From: Alistipes onderdonkii
Lineage (GTDB): Bacteria > Verrucomicrobiota > Kiritimatiellia > RFP12 > UBA1067
DNA length: 45,184 nucleotides
Direction: 5' to 3'
Assembly (NCBI GenBank): GCA_963630185.1
Contig: CAVGMG010000001.1
Coordinates: forward strand, 1 to 45,184
The notes beneath the pieces were generated by a model. The model was not told where the DNA came from, did not search any database, and was given only the letters and a program-made list of their open reading frames with translations. Of the stretch, positions 9,952 to 34,601 are shown piece after piece. How positions within the stretch are numbered: the first letter of the stretch is position 1; each line of letters begins with the position of its first letter. A program made the translations under genes and the position numbers.

Positions 9952-10151
9952 CCGCAACCGTGAAGCTCTCACGTGCAGAAAAGCTCTTCACCTGAACCGT
10001 AGCCACACCACACAAGGCATCCAGACGCCGGACGGCGGCATGCGCGTCCGGACTGCGGTGAAAGACCTGCATACCACGTGCGTTAGTAGGTCGTCGCGGC
10101 GTCTTCGCCGCGGCCTCTCGGGGACGCATAGCGGGAAAGGAGACCTCCTCC

Positions 10152-11162
10152 GTGCCGCATAGGGTCGGCCATCTTTGGGAGAGGATCGGCACGCTCGAGA
10201 ACGTCGAGCGCGCCTGGCTCGTCTACAACCGCAACCGCCCGCGACGGCTCCGCCGCGAATTCGACGCGGCGCGGTGCCGGTCGATCCACGAGAGGCTCTG
10301 CGCCATCGCCGAGGGCGGCGCGTCCGACATCTTCTCGAAGATCCGCCGCCGGACGATCTTCGAGCACGGCAAGGAGCGGCAGCTCGAAATCCCGACGTTC
10401 GACGGCTTCATCGCGCAGCAGGCCGTCTTCAACGTCCTCGCGCCGATCATCGACTCCCGTCTGCACGGCCGCACCTACTCCTCGCGCCCCGGCTGGGGGA
10501 TGCACAAGTGCGCGAAGGCGCAGATGCGGCTCGTCAACACGAAGCCGGCCCTCGCGAGATACTTCCTCTACTTCGACATCCGCAAGTTCTACCAGAACGT
10601 CCGGCACGAGGACGTCGAGAGGGCCGTCGCCCGGATCGTCAAGGACGAGAGGGCGATGCGCGTCGTGCGGGCGATCCTCGCCGCGACGCCGTCGGGGCTT
10701 CCGATCGGCTTCACGGGCTCGCACCACTTCGCGAACCTGCTCGTCGCGCCGCTCTACTACCTCGTCCGGGGCGTCGAGAAGGTCTCCGACTGCTACGTCT
10801 ACATGGACAACTTCATCGTCTACGGCAGGACGAAGCGGTCGCTCCACGTCGCGCAGGGCGAAGCCGAGGCCTGCCTCGCCGAGCTCGGCCTTGAGATGAA
10901 GCCGGACTGGCAGGTCGCGCCGCTGAAGGCGCGGCCCGTGGCGACGTGCGGCGTGAGAATCCGGCGCGGCGAGACGCCGAAGCTCTACAAGAAGCTCAAC
11001 CACCGCAATTTCAGGAACATCGACAAGTTCCTCGCCCATCCGACGAGACGGCTGGCGCGGGGGCTCGTGAGCCGGTACGGATGGCTCGCGGCGGTCGGAC
11101 GGGAACGGATCTTGAGCGACGCCGTGTCGCTCGACTACGTGAAAGGAAAGGCGAAAAGATGA
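10152..11162 (+). CDS. DGR-type reverse transcriptase
   Basis: GTG 10152 after aaggaga. RT motifs are GKERQLEIPTFDGFIAQQAV, YSSRPGWGMH, YFLYFDIRKFY (motif A Asp), GLPIGFTGSHHFANL and YVYMDNFIVYG (motif C). Confidence 0.85.
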   Translation: MPHRVGHLWERIGTLENVERAWLVYNRNRPRRLRREFDAARCRSIHERLCAIAEGGASDIFSKIRRRTIFEHGKERQLEIPTFDGFIAQQAVFNVLAPIIDSRLHGRTYSSRPGWGMHKCAKAQMRLVNTKPALARYFLYFDIRKFYQNVRHEDVERAVARIVKDERAMRVVRAILAATPSGLPIGFTGSHHFANLLVAPLYYLVRGVEKVSDCYVYMDNFIVYGRTKRSLHVAQGEAEACLAELGLEMKPDWQVAPLKARPVATCGVRIRRGETPKLYKKLNHRNFRNIDKFLAHPTRRLARGLVSRYGWLAAVGRERILSDAVSLDYVKGKAKR

Positions 11163-18346: not shown

Positions 18347-19057
18347 ATGTTCACTCTCTTGGCATTCACGGGCGCCGCCATGCTCGGCTACGGCTTTTCC
18401 TCGGTCATGACGGCCCTCCTCGCCGACGTCGCCGTCACCGGCATCGCGCTCTCGACCTACTCCACCTACCAGCAGGGCGTCGCGCAGGGCAAGGCGAACG
18501 AGGCCAGCGCGAAGATCGCGGCGAACCAGGCGGCGGCGCAGGAGGCCCAGGCCCAGGAATACGAGCGGCAGGCCGCGCTCCAGAAGGAGCAGGAAGGCCT
18601 CGACCAGATCCAGGGCGAGCAGGAGGCGGCCAAGCGCGCCCGCGCCCGGGCGGCCGAAGTCGGCTCGACCTACGCCGCCGCCGCCGGCAACGGGCTTCTC
18701 GTGAGCGGCTCCGAGACCGACACCTTCGCGAACGTCCTCAAGTCGCAGGAGCAGGAGGCCCAGGCGGACATCCAGACGATCAGGGCCAACACGGCGCTCG
18801 GCGTCTGGAGCCGCGAGGAGCAGGCGCGGAGCTACCTCGTCGCGGCCCAGCAGTCGCGATACGGCGTCACCGGCTCGCTCCTGTCGTCGTCGAGCTATGC
18901 GAGCCAGGCGAGATACGCCCGCTCGAACGGCATCACCTCGGCCGCCGGGAGCGCGCTTTCGGGCGTGGCGACGACGGCGATCGGCGCGAACGGCCTCGCC
19001 AAGGAGACGGGCGGCTACCAGTGGGGCGGGACGAAGGTCGCCGCCTCGGCGAAGTAA
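18347..19057 (+). CDS. Internal virion protein B-like (position of T7 gp14), N-terminal membrane segments plus Ala/Gln-rich coiled coil
   Basis: ATG 18347. MFTLLAFTGAAMLGYGFSSVMTALLADVAVTGIAL followed by AAQEAQAQEYERQAALQKEQE. Confidence 0.45.
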   Translation: MFTLLAFTGAAMLGYGFSSVMTALLADVAVTGIALSTYSTYQQGVAQGKANEASAKIAANQAAAQEAQAQEYERQAALQKEQEGLDQIQGEQEAAKRARARAAEVGSTYAAAAGNGLLVSGSETDTFANVLKSQEQEAQADIQTIRANTALGVWSREEQARSYLVAAQQSRYGVTGSLLSSSSYASQARYARSNGITSAAGSALSGVATTAIGANGLAKETGGYQWGGTKVAASAK

Positions 19058-19080
19058 GAAAAAAAAGGAGGGGGCGAGAG

Positions 19081-21210
19081 ATGGGCGTGTTCGACATCGT
19101 ACCGAGAACCGAAGTCCTGCAGCCGTCGCGGGCGGTCTCGCCCGTCCGGCGCTACCAGGCCCCGTCGCACGTCGTCGCGGACGCCTCGACCGCGTGGCGC
19201 GGCGCGGAGCGCCTCGGCCGCGGCGTCACCGACCTCGCCAGGGCCATGATGCAGATCGGCGCCGACATGGCGCACGAGCGGAACATGATCGAGGACAACG
19301 AGACCGAGGCGGCGTTCGTGGACGCGATGCGTCAGAAGATGGATGCGCCGGACGGCGGGCTCCTCCAGCGGATCGCCTCGGCCTGGAGCGGCGACGCGCT
19401 CCAGGGGTGCGTCGAGGAGGGGGAGGGCTACTTCAAGAGCGCGGCCGACGACCTCCTCCGCGAGAAGGGCTATTCCGGCGACCGGAAGAGGCGGATGGCG
19501 CTGCGCCTGGACTCGGCGGCCTCGCCGTTCCAGCGGACGATGGCGCAGGGCGTCCTCCGGAAGACGACCGAGCTCAAGGTCTCGTCCGCCGACAGGAACT
19601 TCAATTCGCTCCTCGAGACGTGGCGGTCGCGCCCGGCGGACGAGGAGTCGACGCGGAGCGTCATCGACGCGTTCCGCGCCTCGCAGCGCGTGCGCGGCCT
19701 TGCGGACGACGCGGTCGAGGAGAACGCCGAGAAGGTCTGGCGGTCGATGGCCTACGACTACGTGACGACGGACGTCGGCGCGGCGGACCGCAGCCGGCTC
19801 GACTGGATCGAGGCGCGTCTCGCGGACGGCCGGAGCGGCGAGCTTCTCGCCTTCAACCAGGCCCTGGCGGAGCATTTCGACGGGCGCGACCCGTTCGGGC
19901 CGTCCGCCGTCCGCGCGAACGGCGGCGCGGTCTCGGCGCGGGACGGCGTCAGGGCGGCGGTCCTCATGCGCCGCCAGGCGCTCGACAAGAAGGACGGCGA
20001 GGCCGTCGACGCGGCGGCGAACCTCGGCACGGCGGCCGTCGCGGCGATCCGCGACAAGAGCGGCAGATACCCCGCCGACCGCCTCCAGAACGTCGAGGAG
20101 GCTATCGAGGCGCTTGGCGCTCTCGCGAAGACGCTGCCCAGGGGCGGCCGCGCCGCGACGGACGCCGCCGCGCGCGCGAGCGACCTCGACGCCAAGGCGG
20201 ACATGATCGCCCAGCAGGAGATGATCGAGGCGTATCTCGGCGACCTCGAGAAGGACCCGGACGCGAAGATCTACGTCGCCGGGACGCGCGGCGCCCGGGG
20301 CGAGGAGACGGCGGCGGCCCAGAACGCCTACTTCGGGCAGGGGCGCAAGGAGCGTCTCGCGCCGCTCGTCCAGCAGATGGTCGACCAGCAGCGCGCCCGC
20401 CCCGCCGGCGAGATGCGCAAGGCGCGCGTCGCGGAGCTCAAGATGCGGATGCTCTCCGGCGCGAGAAACCCCGGCGACTACCACAACGAGGTCTTCCGCG
20501 CGGCGAAGGACGGCGAGATCGAGCTTGGCGACTACCTGGCTCTCGTCAAGGAGTTCGACGAGTCCTGGGCGAAGGGCTTCGAGACGGGGAGGAAGTCGCC
20601 GAAGCAGACGCTCGCCGAGCAGATGCTCGGCCTTGTGCAGGAGTATTTCCCGTCCACGTCGCTGGCCTCGTCCTTCGAGTGGGACGCAAAGGCCTCGACG
20701 CTGAAGCTCCGCAAGGACGCGGACTACGAGGGTCTCGAATACGAGGTGCGCGACCGGGGCGGCTTCTGGCGCGGCCTCTTCGACCTCTGGGGGATCCCGC
20801 CGACGTCCACCACGCACAAGATGGACGCGTCCGCCGTCGAGAAGCTCGTCAACGTGGCGACCGCGCTCTCGTTCTACGACGGGAGGCTAATCGACTTCGA
20901 CCCGATCACGGGCGGCGACGCGGACTACTTCACCGGCGAGAGGATCAAGACCGGCAAGGACGCGCCCGCGTTCAGCGCGGCGGCCTACTTCCGGCGATAC
21001 CTGCAGCGTCTTTCGGACGAGAGCAAGGCGACCGGGGCCGCCGAATACGTCATGCGGCTCGTCGAGGCCGAAAGCCGCCTCGGCAACTCGGCCGCCGACC
21101 TGGAGGAGAGGCGGGCGGCCTCGGTCGCCGAGGCGGCAAAGTCCCGCCGTCCGTCCGTCGTGCAGGTCAGGAACCGCAAGGCCGGCGAGGGCGTGACGAC
21201 GAAGAGATAG
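19081..21210 (+). CDS. Internal virion protein C-like (position of T7 gp15), 709 aa
   Basis: ATG 19081 after aaaggaggggg. Mostly helical. Assigned by synteny only. Confidence 0.45.
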   Translation: MGVFDIVPRTEVLQPSRAVSPVRRYQAPSHVVADASTAWRGAERLGRGVTDLARAMMQIGADMAHERNMIEDNETEAAFVDAMRQKMDAPDGGLLQRIASAWSGDALQGCVEEGEGYFKSAADDLLREKGYSGDRKRRMALRLDSAASPFQRTMAQGVLRKTTELKVSSADRNFNSLLETWRSRPADEESTRSVIDAFRASQRVRGLADDAVEENAEKVWRSMAYDYVTTDVGAADRSRLDWIEARLADGRSGELLAFNQALAEHFDGRDPFGPSAVRANGGAVSARDGVRAAVLMRRQALDKKDGEAVDAAANLGTAAVAAIRDKSGRYPADRLQNVEEAIEALGALAKTLPRGGRAATDAAARASDLDAKADMIAQQEMIEAYLGDLEKDPDAKIYVAGTRGARGEETAAAQNAYFGQGRKERLAPLVQQMVDQQRARPAGEMRKARVAELKMRMLSGARNPGDYHNEVFRAAKDGEIELGDYLALVKEFDESWAKGFETGRKSPKQTLAEQMLGLVQEYFPSTSLASSFEWDAKASTLKLRKDADYEGLEYEVRDRGGFWRGLFDLWGIPPTSTTHKMDASAVEKLVNVATALSFYDGRLIDFDPITGGDADYFTGERIKTGKDAPAFSAAAYFRRYLQRLSDESKATGAAEYVMRLVEAESRLGNSAADLEERRAASVAEAAKSRRPSVVQVRNRKAGEGVTTKR

Positions 21211-21239
21211 CAGCTTGTCCAAAGAGGAGACCCAATCAC

Positions 21240-24200
21240 GTGACCGACGACATTCTCCATTCGCAAGACCCGGCGGCGTCCGACGACGCCGCGCCGAAGG
21301 ACGCCGCCTCAAGCGGCGTGAACGACGACGCCGTCCTCCACGCCCCCGACCTCCAGAGGGCGGCGGCGCGCGCGCTCGTGGCCGTTCCGAAGGACGAGGA
21401 CGACTATTCGGCGCGCGTCCGCGCGAAGACGCTTTCCGAGGCGCTCGGCCGCGCCATCGCCCTCGCGAAGCGCGAGGCCCCGGACGGGACCGCCGCGCCC
21501 GAGGAGCGCGACGCCGCCGAGCGCGCGACGGCCGACGCGATTGGCGCGACGCTCACCGGCAAGCACGACTACGACGGGGCGATGTGGAACCGCCAGAGGC
21601 CGTTCGCGTCCGGCGCGGCCTACGCGGCGCACATGCGCGACCTCGTCCTCAACAGCCCGGACGCCGGTCTCACGGAGGAGGCCAAGGCGTTCTACGCGGC
21701 CGATTACGACACGCAGGTGCGCCTCGCGCTCGAACACGAAGGGACGCTCGACGCCGTCAAGCGCGTCGCGGCCGACGCGCTTGACGCGCTGCGCCCCGTC
21801 TCCCGCCCGCTCTCGCGGCTTGAGGAGTCGGAGGCGGACGACGAGACGCGCGGGGCATCGGCGACCGTCTTCGTCGCCAACATGGGCGGCACGGACATTG
21901 ACGAAAAGACGCTCGACGCGGCGAAGGCGAAGGTCGCCGCGTTCCGCGAGAGGCGGCGGCGCGAGGAGATCCGCCGGAAATACGAGGCGAAGCTCAATGC
22001 CGACAACGCCTGGAACGCCTTGACGAGCATCCTGCCGACGCTCTCGGAGGACGCGCAGACGTGCGCGAAGGCGATCCTGGACTCGCCGGAGAACAAGTTG
22101 CCCTACGAGCACTACGCAAAGTTCAACGCGCTTCCGCGCCGCGAGCGCGAGCTCGTCGTCCAGACGCGCCAGCTCGCGAAGGACAGGGTCGACTCGGGCG
22201 TCTGGAACACGCTCCAGGACGCCGGGATCGGCGCGTTCAACGTCGCCTCGGCCGTCGTCGCGGCGCCGTTCCGGCAGGGGGCGAAGCTCGGGCGCGGCAT
22301 CTACGACGCCGTGGCGGGCCTCAACGCGCCGGAGACAGACCCGAGCGACGTCCGCGACGCCATCACCAGCGCCGACGAGGCGGGGCTCGACGTGAACGAG
22401 CTCGCCGTCAGGCGGCAGCTCCTCTGGCAGGCGACCGGCGACTTCCTTGCCGGCGGCGACCTCGAAAGCGCCGCGTTGCCGCAGCTCCAGTTCGAACAGG
22501 TCTGCGAAGACCACGGCGTCGTCGGCGAGGCGGTGATCGGCGCGGTCTCGACGCTTCCCTACATGGCGGCGGCGGCGATCCCGCGCGTCGGCCTGGGGCT
22601 TGTCGCCCTGGAGGCGATGCAGGAGTTCGACGACCACGTCGCCCTGAACGGCGGCGACATCACCGACCGCCGCTACCTCATGTCGTCGTTCGTGATGGGC
22701 GGGCTCTACGCCTACGTCGAACGCCTCCAGGTCGAGAGGCTCATCGGCGGCGTCAGCGAGCAGCGCGTCCGCGAAGGGCTTCTCAAGGGCTTCTGGAGCG
22801 GCATCAAGAACGGGACGGTGCCGAGGGTTTTGACGGTCGAGACGCTCTCCGAGTCGATCCAGGAGGGCTTGCAGAACGGCGTCATGGCCGTCAACAACGC
22901 CTACGCCCTGGACGAGGACGCCGTCCGCGGCTTCGGCGAGGCGTTCGTCGACGACTTCGTCGGCTCGCTCGGGACGATGGCGATCGTCGGCGCGGGCGGG
23001 CTCGTGGTCGGGCACGCCCGGCGAAGCGGTCTGCACGTCCGGGGGCGTGACGGGCTGTCGGCGGCGGACATGCGCCGCCTGGAGCGCTCCGCCGACCTCA
23101 CGAACCTCTACCGGACGATGTTCGCGCACGACAACATGGTCGAGGCGGCGGCGCGGTCGTCCAATTACCGCCGCCGCGCGATGGGCGAGGAGCTCCAGGC
23201 GCTGCGCGGCCGCTGGCTGGAGGGCGGCAAGGCCGCTCTCGTCGCGCAAGGCGGCGTCAGCGAGCAGGCGGCCGAGAGCCTCGACGGCTTCTTCGCCGCG
23301 CTCCGCGCCGCCGAGGGGTCGGAGGCGGTGTCCGCCGCCTCGTCGGCGCTCGGCGAATGGAACGCCGCGCGCGGCCTCGAAGCGTCGCCGAAGGCGGGCG
23401 AGAGGGGCGACATCGGGCAGCAATACCTCGAAAACCTGATCCGTGCGTTCACGGACGGCGGCATGTCGCGCGACGACTTTACGGGTCGCCTCGTCTCGAT
23501 GGGGTTCTCCGAGAAGGGCGCGGGCGACTACGCCGCCTGGGCGGCCCTCGAACGCGCCGTCCGCGAGAGGGCGGCGCAGGTCGGCGCGTTCGTCGAAGGG
23601 CGATACGAGCGAAAATACGGTTCCAACGCGGCGGAGAGCGCCGACGTGAGCCGCGTCAGGAAGTCCTTCCAGAACCTCGACCGGGCGCGGAGCGTCTGGG
23701 CGCAAGGCCTGGGCGTCTACAGCCGCAACGCCGACGGTTCGGTGCAAGACCCCGGCGCAAAAGCCCTTGAGGCGTTCGGTTTCGCGAAGGAGGACGCCGA
23801 GTCGCTTTCCCGGCTGTTCCACTACGAACGCGCGGCGGCCTGTTCGCGCGTCGCGCTGGACGGCGTCCGCGCCCTCTACGAAAAGGCGACAAAAGGGCGC
23901 GTCGGCGGCAGGGAGGCCCTCGCGAGAGAATTCAAGGGGCGCGTCGTGCGCCTTCCGGCCGGCACGGACGCCAAGGGCAGGGAGACGTTTGGCGACTTCA
24001 TCCGCTTCGAGATGCCGGGCGGCCGGGGCGAGGCCTTCGTCCGGATCGTCGAGACCAGGGCCGTCGAGCCGGACTTCTCGAAGGCCAATCCTTTCGTCGC
24101 CGAGTCGGTCGCCGAAACGGCGAAGGGCTGGGCGAAGCCCGTCACGGCGGACGACTGGATGCGGGCGACGCCCGACGAGCGCAGGAGGATCTGGAGGGAA

Positions 24201-27200
24201 CACGGCCTGCACGACGAGGGCTTGTTCGTGGCAGACCCGACCGTCTCGCTCGTCCTCGACGGCGACCCGTCCGCGCGCGTCGACTCCGACGGGGCGAAGC
24301 GTCTCGTCTTCGGGACGATCGCGCTTGCCGACGAGTCGGGCGTCAAGACGCTTGACGACCTTTCGCCGGTGAAAATCGTCGACTCGTCCGCCGGCTTCCA
24401 CGAGGTCTACCACGCCTGGGAGCACTTCATGCGCGCGACGGGGCAGTGGACGGAGAAGGAGGAGGCGGCGCTCGCCGCGAAATACGGCAAGGCCCTCGGC
24501 GGCCGCCACGACGAAGAGGCGGCGGCGAACGCGATGCGCAGCTACATGAACCGGCGCATTGAAGGGCGGATGTCTGCCGAGGACGAGACGAGCCCCTTCG
24601 GGAAAATCTACGCGCTCGCCAGGAGGCTCGTCCGGCGCGGCGAGGAGATGAAGGCGAAAGAGCGCATCGCGTCGACCGCCGAGGAGGCCTTCTTCGACCA
24701 GATCGTCGCCGACCGCTATTCGGGCGTCGGCGAACTCGGAAAGCCCGAGAAGAAGGAGGAGAAGGGCGGCGAGAAGGGAAAGTCGGAAGCCTCCGCCGCG
24801 CCGCAGATGCCGGGGCGCAAGGAGACATCAGTCGCCGCGCCCGCCCCTGCGGCGTCGTCGACGGAGGCGGGCTCTTCCGCGTCGAAGCCCGGAGCCTCGC
24901 CTCTTCCCGCCGCGCAGAGGGGGTGGACGGCCTACACGCCGACGGGGAACGTCAAGGTCGGCGGGCATTACGCCGTCGTCGACCTCTCGGAGATCGTCCA
25001 CTCGAACAACCCGGCCTACGCGCTCTACATGCGCGCGCAGCTTCGCAACCGCAAGGACAACAAGGCCGAGGAGGACACGCGAAAGGACATCGTCAACAAC
25101 TTCCAGGCCGAGAGGCTGCTTGAAGCGCCCGACACGGCGAACGGCGCGCCGATCGTGTTCGCCGCGCCGGACGAGAAGGGCGTCAGCCGCCTGTTCGTCC
25201 TGTCCGGGAACGGGCGCGTCCTCGTCCTCAACGAGCTCGCGGAGCGCCACCTCTACGACCGCTACAGGAACGTCATGAAGGCGTGGGCGGCCGAGAACGG
25301 CCTTGCCGTGCCGGAGGGCGAGACGCCGGTGCTCGTGCGCGTCGTCACGGACTTCGGCGGCGCGACGCGCGAGCAGGTCGCCGACCTCTCGAACACGAAC
25401 TCGATCCAGCAGTATACCGAGGAGGAGCAGGCGCGCGCGGACGCGGAGGTGGTCAAGGCGCTCGGCATCGCGGGCCTCTACCACGCGAACGCGAACGGCA
25501 CGGCCGACATGACGCCCGGCGTCAACGACGAATTCTTCGCGGCGTTCATCCGGGGCGTCGGCGACACCTCGCTCTACAACTCCGACCGCTCGCTCACGGA
25601 GACCGCCCGCGTCCGCGCCGTCCGCGCGCTTCTGGCGATCGCCGTCGGGCAGGGGCCTCGCGGCCGCGACGTCGTCCGGAAGCTGGTCGAGCAGACCGAC
25701 ACGCTCAACATCGCGCGGCAGAAGAACGCGGCGGCGATCATGGCCGCCGCCGTCGCCTCGCTTGAAGAGAAGGACGCCTACGCGATCGGGCCGGACCTCT
25801 CCCGCGCGATGGCCGACTTCGTCGACTTCGCCGAGAGGAGGAAGGCCGGGAAGGTCGCCACCTTCGACGACTACTACAACCAGATGGACCTCCTTGACGC
25901 GCCGAGCGAGATCTCGCGCGAGATCCTCCGGCTCTTCGGGTCCAAGCAGCCTGCGGCGGACATCGCCGAATACGTGACCGTCTACTGCAACGCGGCGGCG
26001 CAGGAAGACCCGACCGGCGGGCTTTTCGGAAAGGACGCCGCCAGGAGCCGCCTCGACGTCTGGAACGACGCGAAGAGGCTTGTGGACTCTCGTCGCGTGG
26101 CGGACGGCGGCGCGGCGCGGCATTCGTTCAAGGCCGAGACGAGGACGCTCTACCACGGCAGCGCGGCGGACTGGATCCGCCCCGACCTCCGGCACGTCGG
26201 CGAGGGGCAGGGCGGCGACTACCAGGGCTACGGGCTCAACATGACCACGAGCCGCTCCGGCGCGGAGCTCTGGGCGTCCGTCGCCAAGACGCAGCGCGCC
26301 CTCCGCGCCAAGGGGCCGATCGAAGGCGTCAAGGCCTTCTTCGCCCCGAAATTCGTCTACTCGGCCGAGATGGACAAGTCCGCGCACGTGGTCGGCTACT
26401 TCGACCCCGTTTCGCCGGACGTCGCCGAAGCCGTCCGCGCCGCGCTGGACGCGGAGGCGATTCCGCTGTCGGAGGAGGACGAGGAGGCGTTCGCGAAGCT
26501 TGCCGGGCGTCCGTTCGAGCGCCTGGCGAAGTTCGTCGCGTCCCGCGAGAGGTTCGGCGTCAGGATCTCGCCGAAGACGGCGGCGGACGTCCTCGTTCGC
26601 GCCGGGATCGACGCGAGCTGGACGCCGTCCGTCTCCGGCGACGCGGCGACAGACCGCGACTACACCGTCTACAACGTCGCGCGGCTCACGAACTACCACC
26701 AGTGGGCGAACGGCGTCCAGCGGCATTCGTTCAAGGCCGCCGCGCCCGAGGTGACGGCGTCCGATTTCGACGCGGCGATTGAAAAATACGGCGAGGCCGA
26801 AGACGTGTCGCAGGCCGTCTACGCGCTTCCGGACGGGCGGCTCCTGCGCGGCAAGGGCGTCGAGATCACGCGCGGCGGACGGACGTTCACGTCGTTCGGG
26901 CACGACGGCCTCGCCGAAGACGTCATGAAGAAGGTCGCGGCGAAAGCGTCCGATGGAAAAAGCCCCGCCGCCTCCCTGGACGAGAGGATGGGGGCGGCGC
27001 GGCGGGCGATCGCGAGGGCCGGCGCCATCCGCCTCGGATGGGACGGAAGCCTCCTTGAAACCTTCAAGGAGCCGACTCCTGCCCAGTGCGACAGGCTCTA
27101 CGACGTCGTCTACGAGGCCTACGACCTCGCGGAGAGGCAGGGTGACGTCCGTGGCGTCACCGTCGACGTCTCGGACGCGGACGGCGTCGTCGCCTTCGCG

Positions 27201-30200
27201 GTCGCCTACCGCGCCGGGACGTCGCCGCGCCGGATCGTCGAAGACCTGCGCGGGTGGTATCGCGAGGGCGTCCTGCCGCTCGGCGCGAAAGGCCCGGCGG
27301 CCGACCTCGCGCAGGTCGAGGCCTCGCCGAGGCACTCGATCGCCGGGGTCGACTTCAGCGCGATGGCGAAATACTACCAGGGCGACGTCCGCGAGATCGC
27401 GCGGGAGCTCAAGCGGTCGAACCCCTACGCCCTGAAGCTCGCGGCCGAGGCGATGGCGAGGGCCGTCCCGGACGGCGCGGTGCTCGTCCCCGTGCCGGGC
27501 CACGACGGACGCGCGGGCGACACGTTCGCCCTGGCGAACGAGATCGCCGCGATCACCGGCTCGCCCGTCGTCGAGGCGCTGCGCGGCACGCCGCGCCGCG
27601 CCGTCTACGAGCAGAAGCGCGAGGGCGTCCTGCCGTCCGCGTCGGCGCTCGGCTTCAGGCGTTTCGCCGCCCTGCCGCCCGGCCGCGAGGTCGTCTTCGT
27701 CGACAACGTCGTCGGGACCGGCACGACGGCGGTCGCGGCGCGCGAGGCGCTCGGGACGGGGCGCGTCCTGGCGTTCGCGTGGGACCACACCGCGCCGCGC
27801 CCGGTCGGCGTCGTCGGCGGGCTCGACGGCGCGGCGCGGCACTCGTTCGCCGGGCTGCGCGGGCAGGGCGCGGCGGGCGTCCGCGCCGTCGGCGACGCCG
27901 AGGCGCTGGAGTCGCGCGGCGTCGGCCGCGAGGCGGTCTTCCGCCTCACGGGGTGGTATCGCGGCGCGGACGGGCGCTGGCGCGTGGAGCTTCCGTTCCA
28001 CGGCGCGTTCGTCTTCGAGGGCGACTTCGACGACGGCCTCGTCAAGGGCTACCGCACCGTCGGCGACTACTTCGACTGGCCGGAGCTCTTCCAGGCCTAC
28101 CCCGAGCTGAAGGACGTCGAGGTGCGCTTCGACGACCTCCCCGACGACGTGCGCGGCGACTTCGACCCGAAAACCAAGACGATCCGCATCGCGAACGCCG
28201 TCCGCCGGGGCGGGTCCGGCGCCCTGGCGCGGCGCCGCGTCGCGCCGGTCATGGTGCACGAGATCCAGCACGCGATCCAGTCCATCGAGAACCACGCGCG
28301 CGGCGGCGACCCCGACGACCTGCTCGCGCTGGACCGGAAGAAGGCGCTCGACGAGGTCTTCCGCCTGTCGCTCGCGCGCGCCCTCGCGAAGACCAAGGCC
28401 GAGAAGGCCGAGATTTCGGAGAAGATCGAGGAGCTCGAGCGCAGCCTCGCCGCCGACGCCGAGGCCGCGTTCGAGCGATACTACCGCCTCGCCGGAGAGG
28501 TCGAGGCGCGGAACGCGGCCCTGCGCTTCTCCAAGAGCCCGTCGTGGCGGCTTTCGCATCCGCCGTGGGAGACGGAGGAGGTCGGGCGCGACCGGCAGCT
28601 CGTCGACTTCAAGGAGGAGGACGGCGTCCACTGGGACGACGCCGCGCCGGACGCCCGCCGCTCGGTCACGTCGGCCTGGGGCGAGGGCTTCCCGGATGTC
28701 GCCTACATGACGACGCGCAAGTTCGTCCTCGCGAACCCGGAGCTCGACAGGCTCCACCGCGAGGCGAAGGCCGGAAGCCTGGCTGCCGCGCTCGCGTTCG
28801 TCGACCGTCTTCTGCCGGACGCGCCGACGAGCGAGTCGGAGAAGGTGCGCGTCCGCAAGATCAAGGATCTCGCGGCAGACCACCCGACGGCCGTTCTCGT
28901 CCCGGTCGTCGCGATGGAGCGGACAGGCCACAACATGCTGCCGTTCGCCTACGCGCAGAGAATCGGCGAGATCACGGGCCTCAAGCTCGCGAGGGGCGTC
29001 AAGCAGAGCGTCAAGGCGAACCACACCGGCGCGAGCGGACTCGAGCGCCTCGTGCGCCGCGCCGAGTTCGTCGGGGACGTGACGCCCGGCCGCGAATACG
29101 TCATGGTCGACGACCACGTCACGCAGGGCGGGACGCTCGCGGCCTTGCGACGTCACGTCGCGGATCGCGGCGGAAAGGTCGTCGCGGCGACGACCTTGAC
29201 AACGTCGCGCGGAAGTAGTATACTGTCTCCACGTGATTCGACGCTTGAAAAACTCGCCGCGAAGTTCGCAAGCGTCCTTGCAGAACTCAAGGAAGCAGGT
29301 GCAGAAGATGCCATCGCAGACCTTACAGAATCCCAAGCCCGACAGCTCCTCAAATACTCCGTTGACTCCTTTGGAGATCTTGCAGCTCGAGCACTCGTTC
29401 GCCGTCGCGGCGAGGGAGCTCATCAAGATGGGCCGGGCGACGCCGGACTCGTTCGAGCCGCGCTTCGACCCGGAGGCTCCGACCAAGCTGGAGCTCGTCC
29501 AGGGATGGCCGGGGGAATGGGAGATCCTGCCGGACGGGGAGCTCAGATACCTCTGCGGGACGTTCGATGGTCTTTCGCAGGACGATCCAAGGCACTTGAT
29601 GTAGGCGACGTCCTTCCGGGGCTGCGCCCGCTCTACGACCATGACGCGAAGCGGCTCGGCGAGACGTTCTTCGCCAGGTCGCCGCTGATCAGGGGCCCCG
29701 TCTCGAAGGATCTTCACGACGCGATTGACGAGGCCGGCAGGGCCGGGGAGATGCCGGACGGCGAGAAGCGCGGCCTTCTCGAACGGCTCGTCGGCGAGAT
29801 CAAGGCGTCCAAGGAGGGGAAAGTCCTCTTCGGACGCTACAGGACGGGCGACTCGTGGGACGGCACGGAGGACGACTGGCTCCGCCCGGAGCGCGTCAGG
29901 CTGCGCGAGCGTATCTTCCGCGACCTCGTCCTGGCGCCGGTCACGTCCGCCAACAGCGAGGCGCTTGAGCCGAACCGGCTGACCGGCAAGGCGAAAGGCG
30001 CGGAGGCGATTGCTCGTTCGAACGCGGCGAACCCCGACCTGCCGAAGATCTCGCTTGGTGCGGACGCCCGCTACGCGCCGTCGCGCGAGCGGCGGCTCGA
30101 CATCGTGATGGGGCCTTCGGCGGCCGGGAAGTCGAGCGTGTTCGTCGACCTCCTGTCTGTCTGCCACCGGGCGCGCGTCTTCGATTCGGACGCGGTCAAG

Positions 30201-33200
30201 AAGCGTCTGCCGGGCTTCGACGGCGGCAACGGCGCGAGCTTCGTCCACGAGGAGTCGAGCCGGATCAACAAGGAGATGATCCGCCGCTTCCTCGACATGA
30301 ACACGGGCGAGAACGTCGTGCTGCCGATCGTCGGGGCGACGGAGAAGGGCGTCAGGAGATACGTCGAGCTCTTCCGCGACGCCGGCTACGCAATCTACCT
30401 GCACAACGACCGCGTGCCGATTCTGCACGCCTTCCACCGCGCCTGGCTGCGCACGCTCGCGACAGGCCGCCTCATCGCGCCGGAGGTGTTTCTCGGCTGC
30501 ATGGACAATCCGTCGGTCGTCTTCGAGCGCCTACGCCGCGAGGTCGACTTCTGGGACGAGTTCGACAACGACGACGTCACCGTCGGCGCCGCGCCGCGCT
30601 ACGTGCGCGGCAACTACTCGGAGCCGGCCTACGGGACGGCGTCGGAAGCGGCGTCGGCGAAAGAGCCCGGCCTGGAAAGCCTTGAAGACTGGAAGAAGCG
30701 TCTTGCAACCCCTCAGGCGATTGCCGACATGGCCGCCGCGATGGACATGGAGGAGCGCGGCGACAAGGCCGCCGCGCCCGTCCTCCGGCAGGGCGAGTTC
30801 GACTTCGGACCGGACGCGGAGGCGAGCTCCAGGCACGCGATCCGCGCCGACCTCGGCGAGAGGCGCGAGAAGGCGGCGGCCGAGGCGCTGACGAACTGGA
30901 TCACCTACTTCCGGCTCTCGCGCGGCTCCGTCCCCATGGCGAAGACCATCGCGCGGATGGGCCTTGCCATGGGCATGGGCGTCGTCGACACGAAGCGGAT
31001 CCTCCAGTCGTCGGAAAGCCGCGCCGAGCAGATGCGCGGGTCGCTCATCGAGAAGGCCGCCCAGAACGGCGACGTCGCCACGACCCTCGCGCTTTTGAAG
31101 CGCGAGGACGGCATCGACGAGTCGATCGACGGCCTTCTCGCCGGCTCCGTCGCCCAGGGCGGCGAGCTGACGCGCGCGGGCTCCGGGCGGATCAACACGA
31201 TCATCGGAAAGCGCGTCGAGCAGATGATGCGCGACTTCTCGGCCGCGTCGCTCGCCGACATGGAGGGCGAGACAGGCCTCGACCTCGCGGCGGAAATCCT
31301 CGAGCAGAACCCCGACGCCTTCGCGGGCGAGGTCAAGTCCGCCCGTGGCGCGGACGCGGCGGACGACGCCGGCAAGGACGCCGCGTCCGACGCGGACAAG
31401 GAAGAGGGCGGCGGCGCGGCCGACGAGAGCCGTCTTTCGGATCTCGAACGCCATGTCCGCGAGCGTGCGCGGCAGGACGCGCTCAAGAAGGTCGAGTCGT
31501 TCATCGCCCGGGCGAAGGCCCGCGCCGAGGAGAACAGGGCCCGCGCCGAGGAGCGGCGTCGGCGCGGCGAAGCGGACGGCGGGCGCGACGGGGCCGGCGT
31601 CGGCGACGGCGCGGACGGCAGGCCCGCCGCCGTGGACATGGATCAGGCCGTGTCGGACGCGATGGGCGGGACGAACCCGAAGAACGTCAAGGCCGACTTC
31701 AGGAGCAAGGAGGAGTTCGCGGCGTTTCTGCGCGTCTGGGCGGAGCACAAGTTCGACAAGACGCACGGGCTCTCGTCGCTCGGCAAGACGGAGCGCGGCA
31801 GGCTCTTCGCCGAGTTCTACCGGATCACCGTCCGCAAGGAGCTCCAGGACCTCGCCGACAAGCTCCTCGCGCCGAAGGACGAGAGCGGGTTCACGGTCTA
31901 CCGCCTCGCCAGGCTCGGCAACGGCGCGAGGAATGTCGTGAGCCGCCGGCTCGCCCGGATGGAGAAGGGGATTCGCCCGGACGCCATCGAGCGGATGAGC
32001 GCCGACGTCTTCGCCTTCATCAACGCGGCCGCGATCCGCGTCAGCCGGACCGACCTCGTCAACGAGTTCAAGAAGGAGATCAAGTCCAGATACGTCAAGG
32101 GCGAGCGATACGAAGACCTCAAGCTTGACGCCGACCGCCGCGTGACGGGCTGGGTGGAGGAGGCGGCGCGATACATCTGCCGCGTCTGCGACCTCTCGAA
32201 GCGCGGCGCCAACGGCGACATGTCGCAGCTCGAACGCGAGCGCAAGGCCCTGCTCGACGTCATCGACCGCCGGGCGGACGTCTACGACGAGTCCGGCAAG
32301 GACGCCGTCCGGGCGCCCGTCGAGGACATGGAGACGAAGAAGGCCATGTGGAAGCTCGCGCTCCTCGACAAATACGGCGCGATGGCCTCGCTCATGCCGG
32401 GCGAGATCCTCGACCTGCGCCAGGCCGCGATCGAGCATCTTGAACGGCAGGCCGGCGAGCTCGAGCGGCTGTGGCAGGACGCGCGGGCCTACGAGGAGGG
32501 CATCCGGAGCGACCTCGCCGGCGCGATTGCCGCGCCGAACGGCCAGCGCTACCAGGAGCGCGGGTGGCTCGGCGGACGGCTCTTCGACGCGCTGAACGGG
32601 CTTCTCCGTCTTCGGCTCGAACACCTGACGCGCTTTGCGGACGAGGCGGCGCAGAAGCGGGCGAAGGAGGCCATCAACAAGGTCATCGTCCTTCTGGGCG
32701 ACGGCGAGACGGCCTACGCGCGCATGCTCCAGGACGACCGGCGGGCGCTTTTCGAGGGGCTTGCGCACATCTTCGGCCGGAACGGACGCGCGGACAACGC
32801 CGCGATCAAGCGGTATCTGAACCGCATGACCGAGCCGATCCCGGTCGAGCTCGCGCGGCGGATCTCCAGCCAGGGCTTCGTCGGCACGATGACATACGGG
32901 CAGATGCTGCAGCTTCTCGTCTCGCTGGAGCAGAGGTCGTTCAAGGACGCGGTCGAGCACAACGGACGGCAGGGGCAGGCCGAGCTGATCCGCACGTTCG
33001 AGACGACGGACGCCGACGGGCGGCGCGTCCGCGTCTTCACGGAGGAGGACGGGCTTTTCGTCGACTGGCTCCGGGCGTTCTACGCGGCCAAGCGCGACGT
33101 GATCTCGCCGGTGACGCTGCGCATGGTCGGCCAGGCGGTCGATTCGCCCGATCCGCTCTACTGCCCGGTCAGGCGCTCGATGGACGACCGCACGATGGCT

Positions 33201-34601
33201 CTTGCGGAGGCCGGCTCGACGTGGGACCCGGTCGCGGCCGTCTTTTCGCGGCGCGTGAAGAACGACCGCGACTTCGACGAGCAGGCGTCTGTCCTCGGGA
33301 TGTTCTTCGACCGTTCGCGCGAGACGGCGAAGCTCGTCGCCTGGGCGGAGCGCGGGACGATCGTCCGCGGCGTGTTCACGAGTGTCTCCGTGCAGAGCGC
33401 GATCCGCCGCGCCTTCGGCAGCGGGGAGCTGCGCAAGATCATGAAGCAGCTCGTCGCGACGTTCAACGGCGGGGAGGCCAAGTCGAAGACGTCCGGCGAG
33501 CTCGCGGCGGTCGACAAGGCCCTGAACTTCACGACCTACGCCTATCTCGGCTTCAACCCGCTTTCGGCCGCCAAGCAGACGACAAGCTTCACCGTCTGGG
33601 CGAACGCGCTGCCGGGCGGCTTCAAAGACCTCTGGAAATACATGACGCACTTCGACGCGAAGGCGCTCAGGCATTTGATGGAGTCCGAGGAATACAAGCT
33701 GCGGTATGGCGACGAGGTCGGCTCCGGGCAGGATCTCGCCACCAAGGGGCTCAACATGAATCCGTCGATGAACCCGGTCGTCCGCATGATTTCCGGGGCT
33801 GGCATGTGGATGCTCAAGAAGGGGGACTTCGCGCCGGGAGGGTGGATCGCGCAAGGCCTTTACAAAGACCTCCTCGACAGGCACATGCAGGAGGGGATGG
33901 CGTTCGACGCGGCCGACAGGCTCGCGATCACCGAGACGTTCAACATGCTAGAGGAGACGCAGCAGTCGGGCCGCACCTACAACACGAACATGCTCACGAT
34001 CGAGCACGGGCGGATCGGGCGGCTGCTGACGCAGTTCGCGACGTCGCCCCTGCAGCAGTTGCAGTACGAGACCCAGGCGTGGCGCGAATGGCGCGACATG
34101 GTGCGATACGGCCAAGGCAAGCGGAAGATCGCGGCGGCGCGGCAAAAGCTCGTCCGGGCGGCGGTCATCAACCACCTGCTCCTGCCGGCGGCGCTCAACT
34201 TCGTGACGGCCGTCTACAAGAAGCTCATGGGCGACGAGCCGCCGTGGGAGCAAGACGGCTACCACTGGACGCTCCTCACGGAGGTTCTCCTCGGGCAGTT
34301 CGAGCGGGTGTTCTTCGTCGGGGCGTTCGCGCAGACGTCGCTCAAGGCGCTCTTTGCGCGGGAATATCCGCGCGGGAGCAAGATCCTGCCGGTCGAGGGG
34401 GCGCTCGGCATGGCGGCGTCGCTGTGCTTCACGGCGCACGACGTGGCCGCGCTGGACGCGGAGAAAGTCCGCAAGGACCTTGAGCGGCTGCTCAAATCGA
34501 CGGCGCCGACGCGGATTCCGTTCAACCTCTACCGTCGGATCGTCGGCGATTCGGACGTCGACCGCAAGGCGGCGAAGGAGAAGGCGAAGAAGCGTCAGTA
34601 G
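21240..34601 (+). CDS. Giant (4453-codon) polyvalent internal-virion/ejection-type protein carrying multiple enzyme modules
   Basis: GTG 21240 lies 9 nt after aaagaggaga. The frame is open to TAG 34599-34601. The first 781 codons of the 5234-aa track ORF are off-frame sequence of the gp15-like gene. Occupies the position of T7 gp16. See the frame anomaly at 29200-29604. Confidence 0.75.
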   Translation: MTDDILHSQDPAASDDAAPKDAASSGVNDDAVLHAPDLQRAAARALVAVPKDEDDYSARVRAKTLSEALGRAIALAKREAPDGTAAPEERDAAERATADAIGATLTGKHDYDGAMWNRQRPFASGAAYAAHMRDLVLNSPDAGLTEEAKAFYAADYDTQVRLALEHEGTLDAVKRVAADALDALRPVSRPLSRLEESEADDETRGASATVFVANMGGTDIDEKTLDAAKAKVAAFRERRRREEIRRKYEAKLNADNAWNALTSILPTLSEDAQTCAKAILDSPENKLPYEHYAKFNALPRRERELVVQTRQLAKDRVDSGVWNTLQDAGIGAFNVASAVVAAPFRQGAKLGRGIYDAVAGLNAPETDPSDVRDAITSADEAGLDVNELAVRRQLLWQATGDFLAGGDLESAALPQLQFEQVCEDHGVVGEAVIGAVSTLPYMAAAAIPRVGLGLVALEAMQEFDDHVALNGGDITDRRYLMSSFVMGGLYAYVERLQVERLIGGVSEQRVREGLLKGFWSGIKNGTVPRVLTVETLSESIQEGLQNGVMAVNNAYALDEDAVRGFGEAFVDDFVGSLGTMAIVGAGGLVVGHARRSGLHVRGRDGLSAADMRRLERSADLTNLYRTMFAHDNMVEAAARSSNYRRRAMGEELQALRGRWLEGGKAALVAQGGVSEQAAESLDGFFAALRAAEGSEAVSAASSALGEWNAARGLEASPKAGERGDIGQQYLENLIRAFTDGGMSRDDFTGRLVSMGFSEKGAGDYAAWAALERAVRERAAQVGAFVEGRYERKYGSNAAESADVSRVRKSFQNLDRARSVWAQGLGVYSRNADGSVQDPGAKALEAFGFAKEDAESLSRLFHYERAAACSRVALDGVRALYEKATKGRVGGREALAREFKGRVVRLPAGTDAKGRETFGDFIRFEMPGGRGEAFVRIVETRAVEPDFSKANPFVAESVAETAKGWAKPVTADDWMRATPDERRRIWREHGLHDEGLFVADPTVSLVLDGDPSARVDSDGAKRLVFGTIALADESGVKTLDDLSPVKIVDSSAGFHEVYHAWEHFMRATGQWTEKEEAALAAKYGKALGGRHDEEAAANAMRSYMNRRIEGRMSAEDETSPFGKIYALARRLVRRGEEMKAKERIASTAEEAFFDQIVADRYSGVGELGKPEKKEEKGGEKGKSEASAAPQMPGRKETSVAAPAPAASSTEAGSSASKPGASPLPAAQRGWTAYTPTGNVKVGGHYAVVDLSEIVHSNNPAYALYMRAQLRNRKDNKAEEDTRKDIVNNFQAERLLEAPDTANGAPIVFAAPDEKGVSRLFVLSGNGRVLVLNELAERHLYDRYRNVMKAWAAENGLAVPEGETPVLVRVVTDFGGATREQVADLSNTNSIQQYTEEEQARADAEVVKALGIAGLYHANANGTADMTPGVNDEFFAAFIRGVGDTSLYNSDRSLTETARVRAVRALLAIAVGQGPRGRDVVRKLVEQTDTLNIARQKNAAAIMAAAVASLEEKDAYAIGPDLSRAMADFVDFAERRKAGKVATFDDYYNQMDLLDAPSEISREILRLFGSKQPAADIAEYVTVYCNAAAQEDPTGGLFGKDAARSRLDVWNDAKRLVDSRRVADGGAARHSFKAETRTLYHGSAADWIRPDLRHVGEGQGGDYQGYGLNMTTSRSGAELWASVAKTQRALRAKGPIEGVKAFFAPKFVYSAEMDKSAHVVGYFDPVSPDVAEAVRAALDAEAIPLSEEDEEAFAKLAGRPFERLAKFVASRERFGVRISPKTAADVLVRAGIDASWTPSVSGDAATDRDYTVYNVARLTNYHQWANGVQRHSFKAAAPEVTASDFDAAIEKYGEAEDVSQAVYALPDGRLLRGKGVEITRGGRTFTSFGHDGLAEDVMKKVAAKASDGKSPAASLDERMGAARRAIARAGAIRLGWDGSLLETFKEPTPAQCDRLYDVVYEAYDLAERQGDVRGVTVDVSDADGVVAFAVAYRAGTSPRRIVEDLRGWYREGVLPLGAKGPAADLAQVEASPRHSIAGVDFSAMAKYYQGDVREIARELKRSNPYALKLAAEAMARAVPDGAVLVPVPGHDGRAGDTFALANEIAAITGSPVVEALRGTPRRAVYEQKREGVLPSASALGFRRFAALPPGREVVFVDNVVGTGTTAVAAREALGTGRVLAFAWDHTAPRPVGVVGGLDGAARHSFAGLRGQGAAGVRAVGDAEALESRGVGREAVFRLTGWYRGADGRWRVELPFHGAFVFEGDFDDGLVKGYRTVGDYFDWPELFQAYPELKDVEVRFDDLPDDVRGDFDPKTKTIRIANAVRRGGSGALARRRVAPVMVHEIQHAIQSIENHARGGDPDDLLALDRKKALDEVFRLSLARALAKTKAEKAEISEKIEELERSLAADAEAAFERYYRLAGEVEARNAALRFSKSPSWRLSHPPWETEEVGRDRQLVDFKEEDGVHWDDAAPDARRSVTSAWGEGFPDVAYMTTRKFVLANPELDRLHREAKAGSLAAALAFVDRLLPDAPTSESEKVRVRKIKDLAADHPTAVLVPVVAMERTGHNMLPFAYAQRIGEITGLKLARGVKQSVKANHTGASGLERLVRRAEFVGDVTPGREYVMVDDHVTQGGTLAALRRHVADRGGKVVAATTLTTSRGSSILSPRDSTLEKLAAKFASVLAELKEAGAEDAIADLTESQARQLLKYSVDSFGDLAARALVRRRGEGAHQDGPGDAGLVRAALRPGGSDQAGARPGMAGGMGDPAGRGAQIPLRDVRWSFAGRSKALDVGDVLPGLRPLYDHDAKRLGETFFARSPLIRGPVSKDLHDAIDEAGRAGEMPDGEKRGLLERLVGEIKASKEGKVLFGRYRTGDSWDGTEDDWLRPERVRLRERIFRDLVLAPVTSANSEALEPNRLTGKAKGAEAIARSNAANPDLPKISLGADARYAPSRERRLDIVMGPSAAGKSSVFVDLLSVCHRARVFDSDAVKKRLPGFDGGNGASFVHEESSRINKEMIRRFLDMNTGENVVLPIVGATEKGVRRYVELFRDAGYAIYLHNDRVPILHAFHRAWLRTLATGRLIAPEVFLGCMDNPSVVFERLRREVDFWDEFDNDDVTVGAAPRYVRGNYSEPAYGTASEAASAKEPGLESLEDWKKRLATPQAIADMAAAMDMEERGDKAAAPVLRQGEFDFGPDAEASSRHAIRADLGERREKAAAEALTNWITYFRLSRGSVPMAKTIARMGLAMGMGVVDTKRILQSSESRAEQMRGSLIEKAAQNGDVATTLALLKREDGIDESIDGLLAGSVAQGGELTRAGSGRINTIIGKRVEQMMRDFSAASLADMEGETGLDLAAEILEQNPDAFAGEVKSARGADAADDAGKDAASDADKEEGGGAADESRLSDLERHVRERARQDALKKVESFIARAKARAEENRARAEERRRRGEADGGRDGAGVGDGADGRPAAVDMDQAVSDAMGGTNPKNVKADFRSKEEFAAFLRVWAEHKFDKTHGLSSLGKTERGRLFAEFYRITVRKELQDLADKLLAPKDESGFTVYRLARLGNGARNVVSRRLARMEKGIRPDAIERMSADVFAFINAAAIRVSRTDLVNEFKKEIKSRYVKGERYEDLKLDADRRVTGWVEEAARYICRVCDLSKRGANGDMSQLERERKALLDVIDRRADVYDESGKDAVRAPVEDMETKKAMWKLALLDKYGAMASLMPGEILDLRQAAIEHLERQAGELERLWQDARAYEEGIRSDLAGAIAAPNGQRYQERGWLGGRLFDALNGLLRLRLEHLTRFADEAAQKRAKEAINKVIVLLGDGETAYARMLQDDRRALFEGLAHIFGRNGRADNAAIKRYLNRMTEPIPVELARRISSQGFVGTMTYGQMLQLLVSLEQRSFKDAVEHNGRQGQAELIRTFETTDADGRRVRVFTEEDGLFVDWLRAFYAAKRDVISPVTLRMVGQAVDSPDPLYCPVRRSMDDRTMALAEAGSTWDPVAAVFSRRVKNDRDFDEQASVLGMFFDRSRETAKLVAWAERGTIVRGVFTSVSVQSAIRRAFGSGELRKIMKQLVATFNGGEAKSKTSGELAAVDKALNFTTYAYLGFNPLSAAKQTTSFTVWANALPGGFKDLWKYMTHFDAKALRHLMESEEYKLRYGDEVGSGQDLATKGLNMNPSMNPVVRMISGAGMWMLKKGDFAPGGWIAQGLYKDLLDRHMQEGMAFDAADRLAITETFNMLEETQQSGRTYNTNMLTIEHGRIGRLLTQFATSPLQQLQYETQAWREWRDMVRYGQGKRKIAAARQKLVRAAVINHLLLPAALNFVTAVYKKLMGDEPPWEQDGYHWTLLTEVLLGQFERVFFVGAFAQTSLKALFAREYPRGSKILPVEGALGMAASLCFTAHDVAALDAEKVRKDLERLLKSTAPTRIPFNLYRRIVGDSDVDRKAAKEKAKKRQ
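22220..23015 (+). other. Cluster of about 4 hydrophobic (membrane-insertion-like) segments in the giant protein
   Basis: GIGAFNVASAVVAAPF, VIGAVSTLPYMAAAAIPRVGLGLVAL, LMSSFVMGGLYAYV, FVGSLGTMAIVGAGGLVVG. Confidence 0.4.
24399..24413 (+). other. HEXXH motif 1 (HEVYH) in the giant protein
   Basis: cac gag gtc tac cac, in context SSAGFHEVYHAWEHF. Confidence 0.4.
24921..25440 (+). other. ParB/sulfiredoxin-like module in the giant protein
   Basis: GHYAVVDLSEIVHSNNP...RLFVLSGNGRVLVLNELAE. GNGR (25206-25217) occupies the place of the ParB GxxR motif. It follows a Lys/Glu/Ser/Pro-rich linker. Confidence 0.35.
26118..26720 (+). other. ADP-ribosyltransferase-like module (H-Y-[E/D] type)
   Basis: TLYHGS (His), YQGYGLNMTTS (Tyr) and RDYTVYN (acidic position, 26652-26672), in the order and spacing expected of PARP/diphtheria-toxin-like ARTs. 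Confidence 0.4.
27330..27836 (+). other. Phosphoribosyltransferase (PRTase, ComF-like) module 1
   Basis: VLVPVPGHDGRAGD...REVVFVDNVVGTGTT (PRPP loop at 27690-27728; D-N instead of D-D). Confidence 0.6.
27837..28620 (+). other. Zincin-like metallopeptidase module (polyvalent-protein type), HEIQH at 28257-28271
   Basis: DWPELFQAYPELKDVEVRF...APVMVHEIQHAIQSIENHARGG...YYRLAGEVEARNAALR. Confidence 0.55.
28846..29215 (+). other. Phosphoribosyltransferase module 2
   Basis: AVLVPVVAMERTGHNMLP...REYVMVDDHVTQGGTLAAL (PRPP loop at 29097-29135). Confidence 0.6.
30060..30560 (+). other. Zeta-toxin-like P-loop kinase module
   Basis: Walker A GPSAAGKS at 30111-30134, followed by VFDSDAVKKRLP and FVHEESSRINKEMIRRFL, as in zeta/PezT-type kinases. 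Confidence 0.6.

Follow-up and report, generated by a model that had tools for sequence, protein, structure and literature searches.

Introduction

Few phage and plasmid proteins are as large, or as poorly understood, as the polyvalent proteins. As described by Iyer, Burroughs, Anand, de Souza, and Aravind (Iyer et al. 2017, J Bacteriol, PMC5512222), they string together many unrelated enzyme domains, including ddrB-ParB, LPD23, and embedded zincin-like metallopeptidases (zincins), and are predicted to process themselves by means of those zincins; the paper sets out domains and architectures, and the passages searched name no processing site, junction motif, or cleavage motif. Another giant polyvalent protein with a metallopeptidase domain, the 2,811-amino acid (aa) gp47 of phage phi24B, has been detected in virions by proteomics and is proposed by its authors to be an ejection protein; it carries other LPD domains, and the preprint reports neither a junction motif nor processing (bioRxiv 10.64898/2026.04.10.717836). 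Here we describe a protein of this general kind that is encoded by contig CAVGMG010000001.1, a whole 45-kb contig belonging to a 1.6-Mb metagenome bin (its full 45,184 nucleotides are referred to below as the window), and in which a four-residue peptide, RHSF or a close variant of it, recurs at the borders between modules.

Several better known systems invite comparison. In MARTX-type toxins a built-in cysteine protease cuts between swappable effector cassettes, after Leu. The protein of the window would resemble them in being a single delivered chain with swappable cassettes, a protease of its own, and cuts in the linkers (here proposed), whereas the class of the protease (a cysteine protease, not a zincin), the site, the delivery route, and the target cells are all different; the two share no sequence relationship, and the likeness is one of analogy. 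The picornavirus 3C and coronavirus main proteases are chymotrypsin-like enzymes that act on RNA-virus replication polyproteins at sites located at domain junctions. A short consensus at junctions and a protease flanked by its own sites are features in common with the present case, which differs in that the giant protein would be a virion protein of a DNA phage and its cleavage is only proposed. In phages T4 and phiKZ, head proteins are cut by a separate prohead protease (gp21 and gp175, respectively) at short sites containing Glu. These are packaged internal proteins cut at short consensus sites, as is proposed for the protein considered here. The composition of the site is different, however, and among the ten larger ORFs scanned in the structural region of the window PHROGs named no prohead protease. 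DdrB of phage P1, which has ParB-like and zincin-like domains, is also known to be processed (as cited in Iyer et al. 2017, PMC5512222).

Results and Discussion

The Peptide and Its Occurrence

The giant gene of the window (Table 1) places several unrelated enzyme or effector domains within one open reading frame (ORF) of 4,453 aa, with phage structural genes adjoining, and its signature domains exceed the Pfam cut-offs (PF18838, LPD23, 39–42 bits against 27; PF18763, ddrB-ParB, 62–66 bits against 27.6). The presence of these two domains with two phosphoribosyltransferase (PRTase)-like regions and a zeta-like kinase in a single phage ORF makes the product, P0002, a polyvalent protein in the sense given to that term by Iyer et al. 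(2017; PMC5512222). Comparison with homologues divides P0002 into three. Residues 1–1627 form a conserved N-terminal part; residues 1627–2475 are a variable center made up of four cassettes (M1, possibly ART-like; M2, of no known function; PRTase-like 1; and the LPD23-zincin module); and the C-terminal part, conserved again, contains PRTase-like 2, the zeta-like kinase, and a tail some 1,250 aa long.

A preliminary description of this DNA had pointed to a recurring peptide, R-H-S followed by F or I, at what looked like the starts of modules. Its three RHSF copies, its RHSI copy, and its variant RHAI are all read in frame with the giant ORF, and the identity that it noted between the first two copies is real: there are just two occurrences of the 18-nucleotide string CGGCATTCGTTCAAGGCC, one at 26118 and one at 26721, a match with a probability of about 0.03 given the same hexapeptide and the codon usage of the gene. 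A sequence of 4,460 aa with this composition should contain 0.022 copies of RHS[FI], compared with four seen, and none of 20,000 shuffles reached four, so that the peptide is clearly more frequent than chance would have it. Two further candidates fared differently. 'ARRSVTSA', offered as a possible copy, is a degenerate one, its RRSV being aligned in homologues with IRHSVTTAW, IRYSIQAW, and RKHSVTTAW. 'LEHSFAVA', by contrast, does not count as a copy; it belongs to a separate ORF in the +1 frame, lacks the basic residue of the motif, and is replaced by QMRAF and DRHL in the related loci L083 and L085. Two look-alikes in frame 0, KYSV at 29352 and RWSF at 29565, were tried and left out of the count because they are unconserved in homologues; RWSF also overlaps the +1 frame that is under selection.

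More generally, the junction peptide reads [RK]-[FYHW]-S-[ILVFM], and RHS[FI] is the form that it takes in GC-rich DNA. The homologues P0003–P0016 carry 5–10 copies of it where about one is expected, and 23 of 33 further relatives, found through the ParB-like domain, have at least three (0.4–1.1 expected). In a set of 147 diverse proteins sharing only the LPD23-zincin module there are 144 copies against 60 expected, concentrated in a subset (up to 13, in P0111), many of the proteins having none. When tripeptide enrichment was surveyed without bias in 86 diverse LPD23-zincin proteins, domain motifs dominated and the junction peptide was not prominent. The junction peptide is lineage-restricted, not universal.

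The information in the motif resides almost wholly in its four core residues. Flanking sequences are unrelated between copies and show only weak preferences, for Gly or Pro at −3, Asp or Ala at −2, and Ala or Lys followed by Ala or Gly after the motif; in some lineages the motif closes a longer conserved tail of the upstream module (NxGxFDxxNPDI-RFS, EDVxxxxQIV-RYS, or HKWxDGxQ-R[FH]S). Its spelling follows composition, being KFSL in Lys-rich (probably AT-rich) proteins and RHS[FIV] in the GC-rich lineage of the window, a difference which argues that selection acts on the peptide and that His is accepted as its second residue. The literature searched yielded no published description of the motif or of polyvalent-protein cleavage sites matching it. 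What is new here is the specific tetrapeptide at module borders and its His-containing form; the window adds the degenerate and Ala variants, clean examples of cassette swapping, and a caution regarding the zincin that might be responsible.

Module Borders Coincide with the Peptide

Six segments, namely five modules and the C-terminal part, have the peptide at their N-terminal border; this is well supported, and the peptide is very probably a junction signal. The preliminary claim to this effect is upheld by the places where homology breaks off, by insertions and deletions of cassettes, by the start of a Pfam domain, by a boundary in an AlphaFold model, and by conservation profiles. BLAST alignments with homologues break at P0002 residues 1629–1630 (where those with P0005–P0007 stop), 1827 (where that with P0003 begins), 2031 (the exact start of that with P0011), 2196–2200, and 2458–2478, all of them on motifs. 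Over 16 proteins, 25% of interior alignment ends fall within 10 aa of a motif, whereas random positions give 2.2% (and never more than 3.4% in 500 trials), and a sharp peak of 79 alignment starts falls exactly on the first motif residue, with the reservation that the alignments entering these figures are not independent of one another.

Where close relatives differ by the insertion, deletion, or swap of a cassette, the breaks likewise fall on the motif. Between ...AERHSI and ...QQRFSI, P0005 carries a module of about 286 aa, and at the same place P0006 has a single ...AERHSI. A relative of the cassette region that is 73% identical to the window, L084 (CAVEND010000001.1, 15017–22804), departs from it exactly after ...DGEAR-HS at junction 4 and carries a different module there; at junctions 1, 2, and 3 it reads KHAL, KHSF, and KHSI. 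The position of the degenerate junction 5 is occupied in homologues by RHSV, RYSI, RFSV, or KHSV (the last in L084), and both this junction and RHAI stand at the ends of indel-rich linkers, where conservation resumes. The average of 171 non-redundant sites shows a hydrophobic spot at the motif and a hydrophilic stretch on either side of it.

M1 aligns with modules of P0005, P0099, P0144, and P0015, and just a remnant of about 48 aa is retained in P0003; M2 has no match in Pfam; and M3 has 15 homologous modules, most of them preceded by the motif or a variant of it. The LPD23-zincin module was modeled with AlphaFold from 49 sequences (mean predicted local distance difference test [pLDDT] score 80); in this model pLDDT is below 50 through the Arg-His of junction 4, and Phe-Ala are the first ordered residues, forming a beta-bridge. 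A model of M1–M3 has local minima of pLDDT at junctions 2–4, and with a mean of 44 from three aligned sequences it is too poor to count. No relatives of M1–M3 were found in viral contigs, L084 was their sole match in genome contigs, and no stretch of the M1 alignment is conserved enough to serve as a search query.

Table 1. Positions of the giant gene, its modules and junctions, and the overlapping ORF, in nucleotides of the window unless another locus is named
Feature	Position	Strand	Basis or remark
Giant polyvalent protein gene, 4,453 aa (P0002 as called)	21240–34601	+	Pfam ddrB-ParB, LPD23, PRTase, Zeta_toxin
First zincin-like HExxH motif, GFHEVYHAW (HEVYH), in conserved N-terminal part, upstream of ParB-like domain	24399–24413	+	FHExxH[AG] conserved in all ddrB-ParB relatives, motif-rich ones lacking LPD23 among them
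ddrB-like ParB domain	24957–25346	+	PF18763, E 7e-17
Junction 1, RHSF; conserved N-terminal part ends, M1 starts	26118–26129	+	In-frame match
M1, short form of a YHGS...GxGxG...HKW module recurring in other polyvalent proteins, possibly ART-like	26130–26720	+	Weak Pfam DUF3990 match
Junction 2, RHSF	26721–26732	+	In-frame match; 18 nucleotides identical to junction 1
M2, no assigned function	26733–27329	+	Homologous modules in P0003 and P0004 and, more weakly, in P0111 and P0184
Junction 3, RHSI	27330–27341	+	In-frame match
M3, phosphoribosyltransferase-like 1	27342–27836	+	Weak PF00156 match
Junction 4, RHSF, at LPD23 start	27837–27848	+	Pfam LPD23 match begins at motif Ser
M4, LPD23 + zincin-like metallopeptidase (HEIQH 28257–28271, GEVEARN 28494–28514)	27849–28655	+	PF18838, E 1e-10
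Junction 5, degenerate RRSV	28656–28667	+	End of indel-rich linker
M5, phosphoribosyltransferase-like 2	28668–29400	+	PF00156, phrog_22413
Nested ORF, 98 codons, ending DDPRHLM-stop, outside the motif system, contains 'LEHSFAVA'	29308–29604	+ (+1 frame)	ATG at 29308; codon bias, conservation
Region of the +1 ORF in the window and in relatives	Window 29200–29604; L083 14000–14449; L085 about 10090–10443; L086 253–528; L087 253–690		
M6, zeta-toxin-like P-loop kinase (Walker A 30111–30134)	29605–30830	+	PF06414, E 4e-7
Junction 6, variant RHAI	30831–30842	+	Close homologues keep [RK]-H-A-[IM]; end of poorly conserved, indel-rich linker
Conserved C-terminal part, about 1,250 aa	30843–34598	+	53–70% identity across P0003–P0013; Pfam gave no match above its threshold

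What the Peptide May Do

We favor the reading in which a zincin-like metallopeptidase within the same polypeptide recognizes each copy of the motif and cleaves there, and regard this as about an even bet (a probability of roughly 0.5). The giant protein would be packed and ejected as a single chain, and a zincin, either the HEVYH or the HEIQH enzyme, would then cut in the linkers, freeing the modules much as a polyprotein is divided. Zincins usually prefer a hydrophobic residue at P1′, and a small Ser followed by a hydrophobic fourth residue fits cleavage of this kind for that reason. In many relatives the peptidase module is flanked on both sides by the motif (R[FHY]S-FAG... and ...QIV-R-[FY]-S-[IL]), and stand-alone versions of the peptidase end at ...QIVR; in the window the site upstream of the peptidase is intact and the downstream one is degenerate (QLVDF, then RRSV). 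Other copies of the motif are about 2.6 times more frequent in proteins whose peptidase module has the motif ahead of it, but the co-occurrence statistics are not phylogenetically independent, which is one of several points that weigh against cleavage by an embedded zincin.

The remaining points concern the site and the enzyme. As modeled, the LPD23-zincin fold already includes the Phe of junction 4, which would be a poor fit with a cut just before Phe once the module has folded. Ala replaces Ser at two sites, RHAI in the window and KHAL in L084. Many LPD23-zincin proteins of at least 1,500 aa have no copy of the motif or only one, and there are motif-rich relatives without LPD23 whose only HExxH domain is of the FHExxH[AG] type; the motif is thus not tied to the LPD23 peptidase, and the enzyme is not assignable. 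An attempt to link the motif to one of the two types of zincin was confounded by shared ancestry.

Even so, the peptide is the best candidate for the putative sites at which such proteins are cut into separate effectors. It makes the self-processing prediction of 2017 directly testable, as a named peptide of four residues; it supplies a simple rule for splitting giant proteins into single effector modules that can be expressed and assayed; and it explains the clean borders of the cassette swaps between relatives. We also advance, tentatively and at somewhat less than even odds, a wider proposal: [RK]-[FYHW]-S-[ILVFM] could be a processing code in wide use among the polyvalent proteins of phages and perhaps of plasmids, by which an embedded zincin recognizes the motif, excises itself, and frees the neighboring effectors after ejection. 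If that were true, the motif alone would delimit injected effectors in a large set of uncharacterized giant proteins, and its first two residues would drift with genome composition, from K/F to R/H.

Some of the evidence that is awkward for proteolysis would suit a peptide that is never cut, and through which a packaging partner, a chaperone-like factor, or the ejection channel, for example, would dock with the protein or handle it, or which would serve as a short cap from which the fold of each module starts. The Phe-Ala of junction 4 is ordered and forms a beta-bridge in the AlphaFold model, the LPD23 family overall begins h-F-A-G even where R-x-S is missing, the Ser-to-Ala variants are conserved, and, according to Iyer et al. 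(2017; PMC5512222), some polyvalent proteins, among them N4 vRNAP, ArdC, and TraC1, are transferred full-length. Nonetheless, we consider an uncut linker signal unlikely: no candidate partner is known, the residues after the motif are hydrophilic on average, and the modules that follow the four residues are unrelated folds, in which these residues could hardly play one and the same structural part. The suggestion in the preliminary description that the peptide is a shared first strand fits the LPD23 module only, where Phe-Ala come first in the ordered structure; over all sites the motif averages out as a hydrophobic spot in a hydrophilic linker. Cleavage by a protease outside the giant protein, from the host or from another phage gene, would account for a motif that tracks neither type of zincin cleanly, and would leave the embedded zincins to act on host targets; Iyer et al. 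(2017; PMC5512222) do consider peptidase domains possible effectors against host proteins. We think this distinctly unlikely, given that at least one HExxH domain accompanies the motif in nearly all motif-rich proteins and that PHROGs named no prohead protease among the ten larger structural-region ORFs scanned. The motif is moreover kept across very different Lys/Arg compositions (a rough proxy for GC content; the hosts are not identified), and if the hosts differ as widely as that range, they would need to share the specificity of one protease.

The peptide might alternatively be mainly a joint for cassette recombination, a microhomology that permits in-frame swaps and has no biochemical role of its own. 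It does offer natural in-frame break points, the breaks of cassette exchange lie on it, and the 18 nucleotides shared by junctions 1 and 2 include the rarer CAT codon; this much of the recombination joint proposed in the preliminary description stands. The DNA-level conservation beyond the peptide that such a joint implies is limited to that one pair, since only 12 nucleotides are common to the copies and even their codons differ (CGG/AGG, CAT/CAC, TTC/ATC). The peptide also survives complete recoding between Lys-rich and Arg-rich lineages (KFSL and RHSF), and junctions in the non-variable C-terminal part keep it as well, all of which leaves recombination as its main purpose a slim prospect. 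Self-cleavage at Ser by an N-to-O acyl shift, with no dedicated protease, seems to us the least probable account and would surprise us greatly. The motif has an aromatic residue or His before an invariant Ser, and in this it resembles the H-F-S autoproteolytic sites of Nup98 and of ZU5 domains; yet such sites require a conserved fold around the scissile bond, whereas the flanks here are unrelated, poorly conserved linkers, and the conserved basic first residue and hydrophobic fourth residue would go unexplained.

The Embedded Zincin-Like Module

The columns for H, E, H, E, and GEVEAR in the LPD23-zincin module (HEIQHxxxxxE and GEVEARN) are invariant in the 49 aligned sequences, and the modeled fold has local matches only, to minimal zincins and SprT (probability 0.75–0.85; about 2 Å over about 55 residues; E > 0.3). 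A search by sequence against solved structures gave no match. The invariant columns and the model point to an embedded zincin-like metallopeptidase with predicted catalysis. No Pfam match covers 24000–24800, the region of the upstream HEVYH motif.

The tail of the module (28494–28655 and its homologues) is conserved, and its PPWxTxDVxxxxQIV(R) is the extreme C-terminus of the stand-alone versions of 300–400 aa. In the AlphaFold model the LVD equivalent of this tail is a short strand, which may fill the active-site cleft as in zymogen-like minimal zincins.

A Probable Overlapping Gene in the +1 Frame

The preliminary description treated the +1-frame sequence containing LEHSFAVA as a segment of the giant protein. 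The +1 frame is indeed coding there, but the giant protein remains in frame 0, and the +1 ORF is a separate one that overlaps it. Frame 0 is 56% identical to P0003 over 29001–29895, a span that includes a variable Gly/Ala/Arg/Pro-rich linker, and over 29175–29625 the frame-0 GC content at third codon positions drops from about 0.9 to about 0.45 as the bias moves to +1. An ORF of about 85–145 codons occupies the same place in the related loci L083, L085, L086, and L087. Its C-terminus, D(D/E)DPRHLM-stop, is kept; when three loci are compared over its last eight codons, almost every difference is silent in +1 but changes the amino acid in frame 0; and the same bases of the window and L086 give 64% identity when read in +1 and 48% in frame 0.

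Judging by codon bias and conservation, the +1 ORF is best read as a nested overlapping gene. The gene model is corrected to a giant protein in one frame, with a small conserved +1 gene nested in it, immediately before the zeta-toxin-like module. This gene may be imagined to confer immunity or act as an antitoxin, or else to yield a frameshift product, and either is only an idea. In protein databases the ORF is found in 12 clusters; in the two contigs inspected it was called only because the contig starts 252 nucleotides upstream of it, so these two calls are not independent evidence for a gene. Pfam gave no match to the +1 peptides, and genome contigs yielded no relatives of the zeta region.

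The two contigs in question, L086 and L087, are independent metagenome contigs of relatives, both of which begin exactly 252 nucleotides upstream of the +1 ORF. Their first bases (1–252) do not match the PRTase-like module, and L086 has frame-0 stops there. The shared start may be an assembly break where the variable cassette region ends or a real point of rearrangement.

Genomic Context

Upstream of the giant gene lie genes for a large terminase, a portal-like protein, a major head protein, and tail tubular proteins, identified through PHROGs as a short-tailed-phage structural block, and the position of the giant gene is that of an internal-virion or ejection protein in such a phage. Its place behind the tail tubular genes, together with the analogy to gp47 of phi24B, suggests that the giant protein may be packaged in the virion and delivered along with the DNA, and it is probably injected into the host. 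L084 lies on a 23-kb contig with 66% GC that is binned as Faecalibacterium prausnitzii, which hints either that it comes from the gut or that phage contigs have been mis-binned.

The open frame extends from 18897 to 34601, and the real start of the giant gene is at 21240. The roughly 780 upstream codons of the open frame (18897–21239) are Arg-rich, out-of-frame sequence; a 729-aa ORF in another frame (19021–21207) overlaps this extension and looks like a genuine internal-virion gene, for which PHROGs gave no match. A reverse transcriptase gene (10152–11159; phrog_1423, E 3e-50) lies between the head and tail genes.

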